10,680 nucleotides of DNA. It comes from a virus (Duplodnaviria; Heunggongvirae; Uroviricota; Caudoviricetes). Each line of letters starts with the position of its first letter. Within the stretch, counting starts at the first letter, position 1. Shown piece after piece: positions 1,831-9,391 of this stretch. The notes beneath the pieces are model-generated. The model saw only the letters and a program-made list of their open reading frames with translations, was not told the origin of the DNA and made no database searches. The position numbers and the translations under genes are program-made. Where the stretch lies: the IMG/VR virus record IMGVR_UViG_2778261697_000006; one strand, 5' to 3'.

Positions 1831-2502
1831 TTATTCCACCAGCAAAAATGGCGTTGCCCGGTCTATGACGTTGATGCCAATTAACGAGCTAACATTTCGA
1901 CCATTCACAATGCTATCCCGTTCAAGCAAATGCGCTATTTTTTCTACTTCATACCAGTATTGAGACATGAGGGCTTTGGTCTTTTCAACGAGTTTAGAAA
2001 GCATTAACTCCCTGTTAATTCGCTTATCTGTAGCGCAGATTAAATCGAGCATGTCATTTACGTTAGCCATGTCATAGCGATGAGGTAGCGAATACTTTTT
2101 GTTGAAAATATCGTTGTTTTCGTAAAGGGCTTCGCTTACTGGTCCGGCGAGGGATACAAAAGCGGCCTTTTTTGCATCGCGCTTTATACCATCCGCATAG
2201 TAACGTATGAAAGGGATAACTTTACCATTCTGCCCAACTACACCAGATTTACTATCCCGCAAACGCCCTAGATCGTGGCTGTGAATTATGCTGTGTTTAA
2301 CAACACCCAAACACTTGGCCTCATGTACATGTTCGCCAGCAACGTAACCGTATTCATCCATAACGGCGATAACCTGTATATCTAAGCGAATAAGCCATGC
2401 AGCTACTGCATGTCCCGCTTCGTGGAATGCTACACATCGTTTACCATCACCTATCCAGTTATAGAACATTTCATGCTCATATATCTGGTGAATGGCGCCC
2501 AT
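1831..2502 (-). CDS. Putative zinc metallopeptidase (223 aa) with HEAGH motif
   Basis: FHEAGHAVAAWLI near the N-terminus is an HExxH zinc-binding motif in an FtsH/M41-like context (HEAGHA). Start ATG at 2500-2502 overlaps the stop of the upstream small ORF (TAATG), indicating translational coupling. Visibly AT-richer than flanking genes. Confidence 0.7.
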   Translation of the reverse strand: MGAIHQIYEHEMFYNWIGDGKRCVAFHEAGHAVAAWLIRLDIQVIAVMDEYGYVAGEHVHEAKCLGVVKHSIIHSHDLGRLRDSKSGVVGQNGKVIPFIRYYADGIKRDAKKAAFVSLAGPVSEALYENNDIFNKKYSLPHRYDMANVNDMLDLICATDKRINRELMLSKLVEKTKALMSQYWYEVEKIAHLLERDSIVNGRNVSSLIGINVIDRATPFLLVE

Positions 2503-2675
2503 TACGCGCCCTCGCTTGCCAGTGAGGCCAGCGCCTTATCCATTAATCCCCGAGCAATTTCGTGGATCGTTGGCGCAACTCCTACCTCTGATTTTTTACG
2601 CTGCTCCTCCTGAATTTTCTTTATCGCTTCCATTTGCTTCTCACTTATCAATACCGGCTTTACTGAAATAGCCAT
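2502..2675 (-). CDS. Small ribbon-helix-helix-like protein (57 aa), first gene of a two-gene operon with the metallopeptidase
   Basis: ATG at 2673-2675 preceded by AAGGGG 4 nt upstream; the ORF-track extension to 2702 begins with TTG and lacks an SD, so I prefer the internal ATG. MAISVKPVLISEKQMEAIKKIQEE looks like a beta-strand followed by a helix (RHH/Arc/CopG-like). Stop overlaps the start of 1831..2502. Confidence 0.5.
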   Translation of the reverse strand: MAISVKPVLISEKQMEAIKKIQEEQRKKSEVGVAPTIHEIARGLMDKALASLASEGA

Positions 2676-2699
2676 AACGCCCCTTAGAACTGTATAAAA

Positions 2700-2745
2700 C
2701 AACAGTTATTATAGTTTCACAAATAGCAATATTTATCACCGTAAT
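2700..2745 (-). promoter_or_regulatory. Candidate sigma70-type promoter for the RHH-metallopeptidase operon
   Basis: Perfect TATAAT on the minus strand (plus 2708-2713) about 33 nt upstream of the ATG at 2675; only a weak -35 (ATAAAT at 17-nt spacing). AT-rich context. Confidence 0.3.
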
Positions 2746-2769
2746 TGCAAAATATGAAACAAATAGCAC

Positions 2770-2801
2770 AAAAAAATGCCGCCGCTCAGTAGCTGGTGGC
2801 A
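2770..2801 (-). terminator. Candidate intrinsic terminator ending the primase transcript
   Basis: Minus-strand transcript UGCCACCAGCUACUGAGCGGCGGCA forms a GC-rich imperfect hairpin (about 8 bp with one mismatch and one bulge) followed immediately by seven U (plus-strand A-run 2770-2776). The U-tract is on the minus strand only. Confidence 0.35.
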
Positions 2802-2811
2802 TCGTTCTGTG

Positions 2812-2826
2812 TGTCAAGTTTTGACA
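2812..2826. promoter_or_regulatory. Perfect palindrome TGTCAA-gtt-TTGACA, operator-like site
   Basis: 6-bp inverted repeat with 3-bp spacer read directly from the sequence. Half-sites equal the -35 consensus but no matching -10 lies at 16-18 bp on either strand, so I read it as a protein-binding site rather than a promoter. Confidence 0.3.
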
Positions 2827-2842
2827 AGTTTCGTTTTAAGCT

Positions 2843-2871
2843 CACCCCCCCATAGAATCTTTTTGGGGGTG
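2843..2871. other. GC-clamped hairpin / inverted repeat flanking the iteron array
   Basis: CACCCCC ... GGGGGTG 7-bp inverted repeat with a 15-nt loop; no U-tract follows on either strand, so not called a terminator. Confidence 0.3.
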
Positions 2872-2873
2872 TA

Positions 2874-3127
2874 ATATCCCTACCAATCCCTACTAACTGG
2901 CTCATGCCACGAATGGCAAGGCTTTCAGACTGGTAGGCATTCAATTTTGTTGCCCTACATAACCCTACTTATCCCTACTAAATCACTTCAACGGCATTTT
3001 ACTGCCTGTTTTATTTGGTAGGGATATGTAGGGATAAGTAGGGATAAAAATATATATCCCTACCTAGTTTAAAGCCTTGCTACGTCTGGCCTCGTCTCGT
3101 TTTTAGTAGGGCAGTAGGGATAAGTGC
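2874..3127. repeat. Iteron array, putative origin of replication (ori/crr-like)
   Basis: At least 10 copies of GTAGGGATA or its complement TATCCCTAC. Reverse copies at about 2875, 2886, 2952, 2962, 2971 and 3055; forward copies at 3019, 3028, 3038 and 3114, plus degenerate copies at 3106 and 2931. An AT-rich core (ATAAAAATATATAT, 3044-3057) sits between inverted copies. Lies immediately 3' of the primase gene, as P4 crr does relative to alpha. Confidence 0.75.
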
Positions 3128-3140
3128 CGCCGTAAAAGTT

Positions 3141-5582
3141 TCAATCATCACTCTGCCCGCTCTCCACACCGTAAGCGCGTGGCATGAACTCCTCAGCCTT
3201 CTCGTTATAGCCAACGTTGGTTTGCGCTCTGCCGTTAATGCTTCTCGTCAGGTAGCTGGCTCGGTACTCTTTTGCTGCTGATTTTATGGCGCGTGAAAAC
3301 TTATTGACGGAAAGCGGTTTACCCAGGCCGTGATACTCCATAAACGCCAGATAAAGATGATAAAGATATGTCCTCGGCTCTGGCTGGCCTGCCCATGTAC
3401 CTCCGCCCATCATCATGCCTTTGGGTTCGTTCATGAAAAAAAGCGCCGCACACATATCGACAACCGGATCTGTGCCGCGTTTAACCTCTAGCGCCTCCTG
3501 CGAATCGCGCTGCTCTAGTAATAGAGCCTTTGCTTTGTTCTGGTCGGCAAAGGTGGTTAGCAGGTGGCGGATAATCACCGGGATTTCTCGCCTGATTTTT
3601 GCGGTTAAATCCGGGTCTTTGTCTGCGTCTGATACCGGGTTATTAAACGGGAATATCACGCGGCGGCGGGCAATGCCCCCGTTTCGCTCCGTGAATGTCA
3701 TCGGCTCGTTATTGGTTGCCATAACAACGGCATTTATCACGGTTGTGAACTGCTTTTCATATTTCCCATCAATCTCTACCGGATCGCCGCCCGTAATGGC
3801 TTTAATCCCCGCACCCTCTCCAACGTAGCGGGTCTGGTCAGGCATAATAATCAGGCTTTTCCCTACGAACTGCGCCCGTCCCCGTGCGGTGTCCAGCGTC
3901 ATCATGCTACCGCTGGCGGTGTTGTGTTCACCTGCCAGCGTGGTTGCTATGCTGCTGAATACGGATTTCCCACTGCCGCCCTCGCCAGTTATCTCAATGA
4001 ATAGCTGCCAGTCGTGACGCTTCGCCAGCACCATAAACAAGGCTGCTTTGATACGCTCGGCCTTATGATGGTCGCCAGCCGTTGCATGATTCAGCCAACG
4101 GGTAAAATTGGGGGCGCTGGTGGTAATATTTTCCCCCGGCGCTGGCGGGGTGTAGGTGATCCCATTGTGGTTCATCAGCCAGTTACCCGGCGAATGGGCG
4201 GAAAACGTCTGCGTAGCGAGGTCATAAACGCCGTTATCAAAACCAATCAGATCCCCGCTCCGCTCACCAATTACCGGTATTTGCAGCTTCATGGTTGCGA
4301 CAACCGATTTAATCCCCTTTTCGGTGTAGTGGGCTTCGTGCTCGTCGAAAATTGCCACCATAACCCTTTCTAATTCGCTGTCTGGTAGCTTCACCCATAC
4401 GCCAGATTCGTAGCAGTAAACAGTGCCACTATCAGGGTTAACCGCCAACATATCCCATCGAGATGAAAGCAACCGCGCTTTCTGGCTGGCTGCCATTTGT
4501 GCAATATCTCCGACTTCGGCTTTACGGCGGGATTTACCGCCCGCAATGGCCTGTAGTTGTGGTTTCACGGCTTCCCCCTGAATCTGGTACATCGAATCGT
4601 TAAACGCAGCCGTAGCGACTTCCAGCCCGTTTTGCTGGCGGTAGTCGTCCCAGTCGGCTTTGTAGTCTGTCGGCGGCAGCGCCACCCAGCCAGCCACGGA
4701 TAAGGCGGCTTTCTCTGCGGCATCTTTGCCCGTGTTCGCCTGTTCGTCCTGCTGGTGGTCGTTATCTGCGGCAATGATAATTTGCGACTGCGGGTGTTTC
4801 CGGCGCATTACTCTGGCAACGTGGATCAGGTTCCCGGCGTCAATTGCCGCCACTGTAAGCGCGTCCGGGCGCATCAGGTGAACGGACAGGGCCGTCGCCA
4901 GCCCCTCGGCAATTAATACGCTCTGCGGCTGTTCTGGTGCGTTTACGGCGCGATATGCCCCGCGCTTTGCTGAACCTGTCAGGAGTCGCTTCTCTCCCTG
5001 CGGTGTAATGGTTTGCGCTGCTGCCACTGCGCCGGATTCGTCCACCAGCTCCAGCAATAACGAACCATCCGGCATAACCGGATAGTTAAACCCGGTCAGC
5101 CCTTTTGATTGCAGGTAATCAGATTCTCCCTGTGTGGCACTCTGGCGCATTCCGGCATACAGACGGGCAAACGTAGCCCTTCGCTGCTCTGCATCCTCTG
5201 CTGCCTGTTTCTGGCGCTCCTGCTCACGCTGCTGGCGGTCAGCTTCCAGTTGCTCTCTTCTATGGCTCGCTGCCACCGGGTCGGTTTCCGCTGCCCGGTA
5301 ATCAATACCCAGCACATCAGCGGCAAGCTGTGCCGCCTCCGTAGTGTCGCAGTTGTTCACCTTCTTAATCAGGTCTAAACCGTCACCAGCGCCACACTGA
5401 TTGCAGATAAAGCTACCGCGCCCGTTGTCGTCGAATCTGAAACGGTCTTTTCCACCACATGCAGGGCATGGAGAATGGCGGCGCGATGAATCAGGCACGT
5501 CGATAGACAATCCAGCCAGCACATAAGGCCAGCGCCCGGCGGCGGCACTGGTCACTTCGCGGATAAGGTCGATATTACGCAT
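3141..5582 (-). CDS. P4-alpha-like primase-helicase (813 aa): Zn-ribbon + TOPRIM primase + D5/P4-type NTPase
   Basis: CPACGG...CNQCG zinc-ribbon near the N-terminus; TOPRIM motifs LIAEGLATA (cf. P4 alpha/DnaG EGYATA) and IIIAADNDHQQDE; Walker A ITGEGGSGKS around nt 3963-3986. Strong AGGAGG SD 5 nt before the ATG at 5580-5582. Start overlaps the stop of the upstream 113-aa ORF by 8 nt. Confidence 0.9.
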   Translation of the reverse strand: MRNIDLIREVTSAAAGRWPYVLAGLSIDVPDSSRRHSPCPACGGKDRFRFDDNGRGSFICNQCGAGDGLDLIKKVNNCDTTEAAQLAADVLGIDYRAAETDPVAASHRREQLEADRQQREQERQKQAAEDAEQRRATFARLYAGMRQSATQGESDYLQSKGLTGFNYPVMPDGSLLLELVDESGAVAAAQTITPQGEKRLLTGSAKRGAYRAVNAPEQPQSVLIAEGLATALSVHLMRPDALTVAAIDAGNLIHVARVMRRKHPQSQIIIAADNDHQQDEQANTGKDAAEKAALSVAGWVALPPTDYKADWDDYRQQNGLEVATAAFNDSMYQIQGEAVKPQLQAIAGGKSRRKAEVGDIAQMAASQKARLLSSRWDMLAVNPDSGTVYCYESGVWVKLPDSELERVMVAIFDEHEAHYTEKGIKSVVATMKLQIPVIGERSGDLIGFDNGVYDLATQTFSAHSPGNWLMNHNGITYTPPAPGENITTSAPNFTRWLNHATAGDHHKAERIKAALFMVLAKRHDWQLFIEITGEGGSGKSVFSSIATTLAGEHNTASGSMMTLDTARGRAQFVGKSLIIMPDQTRYVGEGAGIKAITGGDPVEIDGKYEKQFTTVINAVVMATNNEPMTFTERNGGIARRRVIFPFNNPVSDADKDPDLTAKIRREIPVIIRHLLTTFADQNKAKALLLEQRDSQEALEVKRGTDPVVDMCAALFFMNEPKGMMMGGGTWAGQPEPRTYLYHLYLAFMEYHGLGKPLSVNKFSRAIKSAAKEYRASYLTRSINGRAQTNVGYNEKAEEFMPRAYGVESGQSDD

Positions 5583-6721: not shown

Positions 6722-7652
6722 GTGCGCCCCCTGTGCGAATACGTCCGGCAAAAAAGCAAACGTGATCCCGCGCCAGAATGCGGCGGGCTTCCTGCTCAGT
6801 CTCTGCGGCGATATGGTGAATTTTGGCGGTAATTGTCGGCATATCGCGGCGAACTGCGGCGATAATCCAGATAAATTGCGGTTTTTGGGTAGGGGTAGTA
6901 GCCAGCATAGCGGCAGCCTCTGATTCATGGTTTTGAGAACCACCACCGGAAACGCCAATTTCGCTGGTGGTGAACTGTACAGGGTTGGCGTAACCGGGAA
7001 TCAGAGAAACCGGCGCGGATTGCTCCGCCCCCATACAGTCCACCATTGAACAGGTGTAACTGCGCGGCACAAAAAAACACGCATGGCGCGTGTTGTGCGC
7101 TCTGATAATTACCGGGACGCCAATCCCGACACCAGATTTTGCTGGTGCGCTATAACCATAAACCGGGTTGGCGATAGTCGGCAAGCTCTTTTTTATGGAC
7201 TCCGAAAACTCACCTTCTCGCGTAACGACCCCTAGTAAATCTTCCAGCGCACGCGTATTTGTCGAGAAAGTCGATGTGGAACGGTTCACAACGGTAGCAA
7301 TCCAGTTCATACCACCAGCCAGCAGGGGGAATTTATTCCCCACAATCAGCTTTTTAGAGGTGATTATTTCTTGGTTTAAAATGTCATCATTTGTCGTCAT
7401 TCCCCGTGCGTGGATGTCAGGTTTTGTGAGGTTCAGGCTAAGTTTTGCTAAGTCATTAACCATAACAATTGATAACAGGCAGCCGTTCGCGACCTTTGGT
7501 TTTATAAGGTTGTAAGGGTTAACATTTGTTAACAGGCTAGCCAGATTAAAGGCTTCTTTCTGGGCGGCAAATTCATTACCGTTAATTGTTCCCTGATAGG
7601 CGTTCAGATGAGGGGCGGCCTCAGAAATTAATCTGCTTTTTTCGATGTTCAT
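6714..7652 (-). CDS. Hypothetical protein (312 aa), satellite-specific, function unknown
   Basis: Long ORF with a GAGG SD 6 nt before the ATG at 7650-7652, only 11 nt after the stop of the 144-aa ORF. Protein-like composition; no catalytic motif recognised. Confidence 0.6.
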   Translation of the reverse strand: MNIEKSRLISEAAPHLNAYQGTINGNEFAAQKEAFNLASLLTNVNPYNLIKPKVANGCLLSIVMVNDLAKLSLNLTKPDIHARGMTTNDDILNQEIITSKKLIVGNKFPLLAGGMNWIATVVNRSTSTFSTNTRALEDLLGVVTREGEFSESIKKSLPTIANPVYGYSAPAKSGVGIGVPVIIRAHNTRHACFFVPRSYTCSMVDCMGAEQSAPVSLIPGYANPVQFTTSEIGVSGGGSQNHESEAAAMLATTPTQKPQFIWIIAAVRRDMPTITAKIHHIAAETEQEARRILARDHVCFFAGRIRTGGAHA

Positions 7653-9318: not shown

Positions 9319-9335
9319 GCTACGCCTTAATGAGC

Positions 9336-9391
9336 GATTGAGTCAGGCGGTAAGGCTTCCCGCTTTTCGCCCCGTCGAGCTAGACTCAATC
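9336..9391. repeat. 9-bp perfect inverted repeat GATTGAGTC / GACTCAATC separated by 38 bp, in the int - 298-aa gene intergenic region
   Basis: Read directly: 9336-9344 and 9383-9391 are reverse complements. Lies just 3' of the int stop and upstream of the 298-aa gene. Confidence 0.35.

Follow-up and report, generated by a model that had tools for sequence, protein, structure and literature searches.

The alpha protein of phage P4 consists of a DnaG-type primase, an SF3 helicase and a winged helix (PMC2777425), and the structure of its origin-binding winged-helix domain has been solved (PDB 1KA8). In the P4 record, ori is found between ORF88 and sid, ~2 kb upstream of the start of the alpha gene, and crr, made of two direct 120-bp repeats, follows directly after the gene; the type-I repeat, to which alpha binds, is TGTTCACC/GGTGAACA. 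P4 ori holds six type-I repeats, three in tandem and one inverted, then a 35-bp AT-rich spacer, then two more in tandem, and its function requires the distant crr.

The origins of Gram-negative PICIs comprise two oppositely oriented iteron sets that flank an AT-rich region and are located 3' of pri-rep (Fillol-Salom 2018, PMC6092414). A plasmid carrying the pri-ori segment of EcCICFT073 replicates, and its replication is reduced by deletion of ori (Fillol-Salom 2018, PMC6092414); a cosmid with the CFT073 'primase-ori' alone depends for its replication on primase provided in trans (Brödel 2024, PMC11338833). SaPI origins, in a different host range, are alike in general plan and position according to the same description (PMC6092414), and it is by description only that they resemble the locus considered here.

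The window, i.e., the whole 10,680-nt stretch of DNA that was analyzed, carries an iteron array which is very probably the vegetative replication origin of an E. coli phage-satellite island of the P4/PICI type, recognized by the adjacent primase-helicase. The original prediction of a probable origin finds support in comparison: the experimentally tested EcCICFT073 origin has the same layout, and the presumed initiator has the P4 alpha architecture. Predicted to comprise at least ten copies of a 9-bp unit, in both orientations over about 250 bp, the array holds 12 copies of GTAGGGATA within 2875-3122, six of them exact, three with one mismatch and three more degenerate. It also lies, as expected, directly downstream of the primase-helicase gene: 18 bp separate the nearest iteron from the stop codon (3141-3143) of the 813-aa ORF. 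From the gene outward, the features are:

3141-5582, minus strand: gene for the 813-aa P4-alpha-like primase-helicase, presumed initiator (ORF; Pfam)
3195-3473, minus strand: C-terminal winged-helix putative origin-binding domain, residues 704-796 (phmmer to PDB 1KA8, E = 4e-8)
3114-3122, plus strand: iteron 1, outer pair near the primase gene, GTAGGGATA
3106-3114, plus strand: iteron 2, outer pair near the primase gene, degenerate, GTAGGGCAG, one G in common with iteron 1
3064-3105: primase-proximal long spacer, ~45% GC, holding AAAGCC-N9-CTGG at 3071-3089
3055-3063, minus strand: iteron 3, inverted single of the proximal half, GTAGGGATA
3044-3073: candidate first-melting site, least stable 30-mer of the window, 80% AT (nearest-neighbor stability profile)
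3038-3046, plus strand: iteron 4, proximal inner triple (word scan)
3028-3036, plus strand: iteron 5, proximal inner triple (word scan)
3018-3026, plus strand: iteron 6, proximal inner triple (word scan)
2979-3017: central spacer, 39 bp, 33% GC, with the dyad center at ~2998
2970-2978, minus strand: iteron 7, distal inner triple (word scan)
2960-2968, minus strand: iteron 8, distal inner triple, GTAGGGTTA
2950-2958, minus strand: iteron 9, distal inner triple, degenerate, GTAGGGCAA
2933-2941, plus strand: iteron 10, inverted single of the distal half, degenerate, GTAGGCATT
2894-2932: distal long spacer, holding the mirror motif CCAC-N9-GGCTTT at 2907-2925
2885-2893, minus strand: iteron 11, distal outer pair, GTAGGGATT
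2875-2883, minus strand: iteron 12, distal outer pair, GTAGGGATA
2830-2874: outer limit of the conserved origin block on the distal side; inverted repeat of a C-run and a G-run at 2843-2871
2769-2811, minus strand: terminator-like hairpin with a U-run (RNA fold -22.3 kcal/mol, z = -5.0)

With up to one mismatch allowed, GTAGGGATA is matched 12 times across the window, and nine of these matches fall inside 2875-3122; dinucleotide-preserving shuffles of the whole window give a mean of 1.5 matches each, and none of 200 reaches 12. Raising the tolerance to two mismatches brings the array to 11 copies by adding GTAGGCATT (2933, plus strand) and GTAGGGCAA (2950, minus strand), and the twelfth copy, GTAGGGCAG (3106-3114, plus strand), retains the GTAGGG core. 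This hexamer occurs 11 times in the 256 bp of the array but only twice in the other 10.4 kb of the window.

Along the plus strand the site orientations read --+---+++-++, with starts at 2875, 2885, 2950, 2960, 2970 and 3055 for the minus-strand sites and at 2933, 3018, 3028, 3038, 3106 and 3114 for the plus-strand sites. Tandem sites are phased at 10 bp in the triples and at 8-10 bp in the pairs. The layout is a mirror image about ~2998, running from a pair through a spacer and an inverted single to a triple, and then from the second triple through an inverted single and a spacer to the second pair. All six mirror pairs share a center at 2998-2999.5; the array is thus composed of two inverted half-origins with six sites each. 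The symmetry reaches beyond the iterons, into 68-nt arms that are 75% complementary in the inverted, not the direct, sense. Both long spacers also carry a mirrored non-iteron motif (AAAGCC-N9-CTGG / CCAC-N9-GGCTTT), which is kept in diverged arrays and is present in the EcCICFT073 origin (L004, about 14186-14204). Initiator sites mirrored about a central region are familiar from the origins of SV40 and papillomaviruses, at which the initiators, large T antigen and E1, are SF3 helicases; their sites bear no sequence relation to those in the window, and the likeness to a double hexamer is one of analogy only.

Each half of the array follows the order of P4 ori, with spacers of 35-41 bp, and the whole amounts to two P4-ori-like modules placed head to head, whereas P4 has one; the 6+6 mirror layout, whose halves correspond to the P4 ori module, has apparently not been described explicitly before. 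The word itself is unlike the P4 octamer, as the original prediction had it (GTAGGGATA vs TGTTCACC/GGTGAACA). Because P4 crr directly follows the alpha gene, the position of the array corresponds to crr, which also holds about ten initiator-type repeats, in both orientations, over ~300 bp. Unlike the array, however, crr is made of direct repeats, within which the orientations follow another order, and it assists an ori located elsewhere. The predicted analogy to the P4 ori/crr repeats therefore holds for the position, which is that of crr, and for the halves, which match the ori layout, but the position is not that of ori.

Its place directly 3' of an alpha-type gene could mean that the array, too, is a crr-like auxiliary cis element, bound by the primase while replication starts at a separate ori, as in P4. 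This is very unlikely. Neither the window nor 24.6 kb around the island in the complete genome L001 contains a second iteron cluster, so that one compact element at the 3' end of the gene stands here in place of the two separated elements of P4. The halves are inverted instead of forming two direct 120-bp repeats, each of them has the order of P4 ori and not that of crr, and the homologous CFT073 array suffices as the sole cis element once the primase is supplied (PMC6092414; PMC11338833).

EcCICFT073 has the identical 12-site orientation pattern, with very similar spacings, in the 230 bp past the Pri-Rep stop, and its array, like that of the window, is directly 3' of the initiator gene; its word is GGTAGAYA in place of GTAGGGATA. 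The gene set of that island (int, AlpA, Icd-like, PerC) is similar to that of the window. CFT073 Pri-Rep is 55% identical over 441 residues to residues 360-800 of the window protein, and the two have an SF3 helicase and a winged-helix C-terminus in common. By contrast, the window initiator starts with a Zn-ribbon and a Toprim domain (DnaG-type), as does P4 alpha, whereas the N-terminus of the CFT073 initiator is shorter and unrelated, with 14% identity to the window protein there. EcCIRM13514 displays the same pattern with the word GGTGAACA, the P4 type-I repeat, and its Pri-Rep is 48% identical over 450 residues. In EcCIO42 (L090 5725-5924), an unrelated RepA-family helicase followed by about seven AAGTGAG repeats occupies the same slot of the island; the position is the same but the type of replicon is not. 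Primase-dependent origin activity has been demonstrated by others in the homologous CFT073 array and, by analogy, would be expected of the array in the window.

The long proximal spacer is 80-87% AT in CFT073, RM13514 and P4 ori but ~55% AT in the window array, which makes any assignment of the unwinding site tentative. An AT-rich core predicted between inverted copies does exist (AAAATATA, 3047-3054, between the copies at 3038 and 3055), but it is short, 8 bp, and the AT-rich stretch is both shorter than that of CFT073 and placed differently. The core is part of the 30-mer with the lowest stability in the window (3044-3073), which lies in the primase-proximal half, beside the inner triple, and belongs to the central 120 bp of the array, where GC content is 33-37%. 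The very AT-rich stretch at 2680-2780 was considered as an unwinding element and rejected, since homology with other islands stops near 2830, leaving this stretch outside the block common to them, and relatives carry a gene there.

Origins that rely on host initiators, of the iteron-plasmid or oriC type, have DnaA boxes, an IHF site and clusters of GATC. The array has neither a DnaA box (up to one mismatch) nor an IHF consensus, and GATC is absent throughout 2569-3466, which fits a self-sufficient alpha-type initiator. Rfam reports no RNA family inside the array. The hairpin at 2769-2811, on the same strand as the primase gene and ~65-105 bp past the array, is seen by folding only, as a consensus scan of 2450-3250 returns no promoter and no terminator. 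The primase operon probably terminates at this hairpin, in which case transcription would cross the array. A 52-aa ORF at 2786-2944 is unlikely to be a real gene because RefSeq annotates nothing there and indels in related arrays are not multiples of three. In related islands (L005-L008, L004, L089, L090), a small gene and an SSB gene, often followed by PerC, follow the origin immediately; at 1831-2830 the window carries another cassette instead, with a 57-aa ORF and a 223-aa ORF of the 'peptidase M41 family'.

An array that sits in a transcribed region, upstream of a terminator-like hairpin, with the primase gene on one side and downstream genes (in relatives, SSB and PerC) on the other, might instead be mainly regulatory: an operator of the downstream operon, or an autoregulatory or handcuffing site for copy control, bound by the primase or another island protein. 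Iterons of plasmid origins are indeed known to double as copy-control sites. We regard a mainly regulatory array as improbable, given that 2450-3250 contains no promoter-like site, that the iteron word co-varies with the origin-binding domain of the initiator (see below) and that the homologous CFT073 region has origin activity; a control role could, besides, accompany origin function without displacing it.

The presumed initiator matches Zn_Ribbon_Prim, Toprim_3, D5_N, DUF5906 and Pox_D5 in Pfam (D5_N and DUF5906 representing the SF3 helicase, and Pox_D5 the C-terminus) and shares 38% identity with P4 alpha across residues 7-803. Its Walker A motif (G533-S540) and the R639-R641 motif are invariant in alignment A1. 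Pfam also identifies an integrase, an AlpA regulator and an Ash-family protein among the products of the window. The closest complete genome has the island inserted at tRNA-Thr beside proA, with no annotation across the array; Table S1 of Fillol-Salom 2018 (PMC6092414) has no entry for an E. coli PICI at thrW/proA. Megablast of the window against phage genomes finds short matches in the antirepressor region only. Three Rfam matches at gathering score, all on the minus strand, are to C4 antisense RNA (6963-7050), isrK (7072-7148) and int-alpA RNA (9324-9390); they suggest that the island, which lacks sid, delta and psu, has an RNA immunity and regulatory region in the style of P4.

A widespread intergenic repeat family, the scenario that the original prediction had set against an origin, is excluded by the distribution of the array: it is present in 78 of 5426 complete E. 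coli genomes and on no plasmid, each time as unannotated DNA beside this primase gene. Among IMG/VR contigs, six of the eight that have two adjacent copies of the word carry an array beside a primase homolog, five with the full 12-site pattern and one (L098) truncated. The array of strain 873.10, 79% identical overall, keeps 12 of 12 sites, and in four diverged arrays the iteron columns are 73-88% identical as compared to 48-55% for the other columns. The number of copies in an inner triple varies in some strains through 10-bp indels: there are two in strain F11 (L006 1659-1669), in which the primase gene is frameshifted, and four in MSB1_1D (L007 1659-1689) and in one IMG/VR contig (L094 6575-6605).

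This gain and loss of 10-bp units (L006, L007, L094) is what might be seen if the repeats were functionless, a generic intergenic family or a by-product of slippage. Yet there is one locus per island, found only beside the primase gene; all 12 positions are retained in an array that is just 79% identical; the iterons are far better conserved than the spacers; and the layout is common across genera in spite of different words. Lack of function is thus exceedingly improbable.

A locus survey that took one genome per species yielded 80 alpha-like loci, and loci added to these raised the set to 86. An array is found within 300 bp past the stop in 58 of the 86, and its orientation string is within one edit of --+---+++-++ in 39 of these 58 and within two edits in 51; dozens of Enterobacterales loci have the 12-site layout. 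Lineages differ in the word, which is GTAGGGAT, GTAGAGATA, GGTAGACA, or GGTGAACA and its variants. About 28 of the 86 loci, mostly nearest to P4 alpha, lack a compact array in the 300 bp past the gene; among them, within L067-L088, are loci of Rahnella, Pantoea, Erwinia and Chimaeribacter, and these may have a split ori/crr arrangement like that of P4. A 280-kb contig labeled Chryseobacterium sp. 18061 (L014) has a GTAGGG array and a primase of Enterobacterales type (82% identical); it may represent contamination or a mislabeled assembly.

The original prediction held that the iteron word defines a replication-specificity group and proposed a comparison of words across related islands. That comparison supports the claim: the layout is the same, and the word tracks the C-terminus of the primase, chimeric proteins included. 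Among pairs of proteins with helicase domains at least 75% identical, identity of the C-terminal domains is 83-100% within one iteron class, vs a median of 38% between classes. The primase and helicase of the Tatumella protein (L018) share 66% and 81% identity, respectively, with those of the window protein. Its C-terminal domain, by contrast, shares only 34% and is nearest to that of P4 (49%), and the word of its array is GGTGAACA. The Rosenbergiella protein (L012), with a C-terminal domain 80% identical to that of the window protein, is accompanied by an iteron one base off (GTAGAGATA). Its 19 differences concentrate in residues 776-787, with 7 in these 12 positions vs 12 in the 94 elsewhere (Fisher p = 0.0009), and the segment matches CFT073 at 9 of 12 positions vs 47% elsewhere. 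In the AlphaFold model of the C-terminal domain, which has a low pLDDT of 59, a helix spans local residues 60-79 and a hairpin 82-87. By homology to 1KA8, the usual winged-helix topology and this low-confidence model, residues 776-787 would correspond to the end of the recognition helix and the wing. This pattern fits a wing that would read the middle of the iteron. Such natural chimeras, which tie the wing segment to the iteron word, are apparently new.

More broadly, alpha-type initiators are mosaic: the type of N-terminal primase, the helicase and the C-terminal domain differ in their nearest relatives (L018, L074, L082, L012). L074 and L082, for example, have a CFT073-like N-terminus and a helicase close to that of the window protein, and their C-termini are nearer to P4 (44-45%) than to the window (35-36%). 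At the level of sequence, the comparison supports a specificity group formed by the GTAGGGATA array and its own primase, distinct from those with GGTAGAYA (CFT073 type) and GGTGAACA (P4 type).

Upon induction, the island's 813-aa primase-helicase would be made, and its C-terminal winged-helix domains would bind the twelve GTAGGGATA sites, an interaction that we infer from sequence comparison. Each half-origin would present an outer pair, a ~40-bp spacer, an inverted site and an inner triple at 10-bp phasing. Since the half-origins are mirror images, the initiator would assemble on them in opposite orientations, plausibly as one SF3 hexamer per half, as the site counts suggest. The DNA would then open in its AT-richest part, at 3044-3073 and/or in the 33%-GC center, the helicase rings would load, the N-terminal DnaG-type primase would prime, and host polymerase III would carry out theta replication, presumably in both directions. 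The initiator's own helicase and primase would take over at this point, as established for P4 alpha. The word would be read largely by the wing (residues ~776-787) together with the recognition helix, setting which primase fires which origin.

A further, tentative reading is that the 6+6 mirror may be a loading platform conserved from P4 ori to the PICIs, with a hexamer for each half, and that a short, swappable wing segment around residues 776-787 would set specificity by reading the middle of the iteron; we consider this less likely than not. If it is true, the chimeric L012 and L018 would show how new, mutually orthogonal primase/origin pairs arise, and GTAGGGATA with the 813-aa protein would be an orthogonal pair that has not been described.

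This kind of origin is already known from Gram-negative PICIs and has been tested in the sister island EcCICFT073; what is new here is a specificity class with the word GTAGGGATA. Full-text matches to the word come from unrelated papers, several of them on double-strand-break repair. The I-SceI site contains TAGGGATAA and may explain the latter. As an iteron, GTAGGGATA was not found in the full-text literature search, although the word may still be drawn in Fig. 2a of Fillol-Salom 2018, whose supplement does not give iteron sequences as text.

The analysis locates the origin of a common satellite island of E. coli (78 of 5426 complete genomes) and gives this island a specificity group of its own. 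Primase/origin pairs of this family are already in use as conditional replicons in DNA delivery vectors (Brödel 2024, PMC11338833), and an additional pair, distinguished by its iteron word, could give an orthogonal replicon. The 12-site mirror, together with the co-variation of wing and iteron, suggests how alpha-type initiators recognize their origins and how they diversify.
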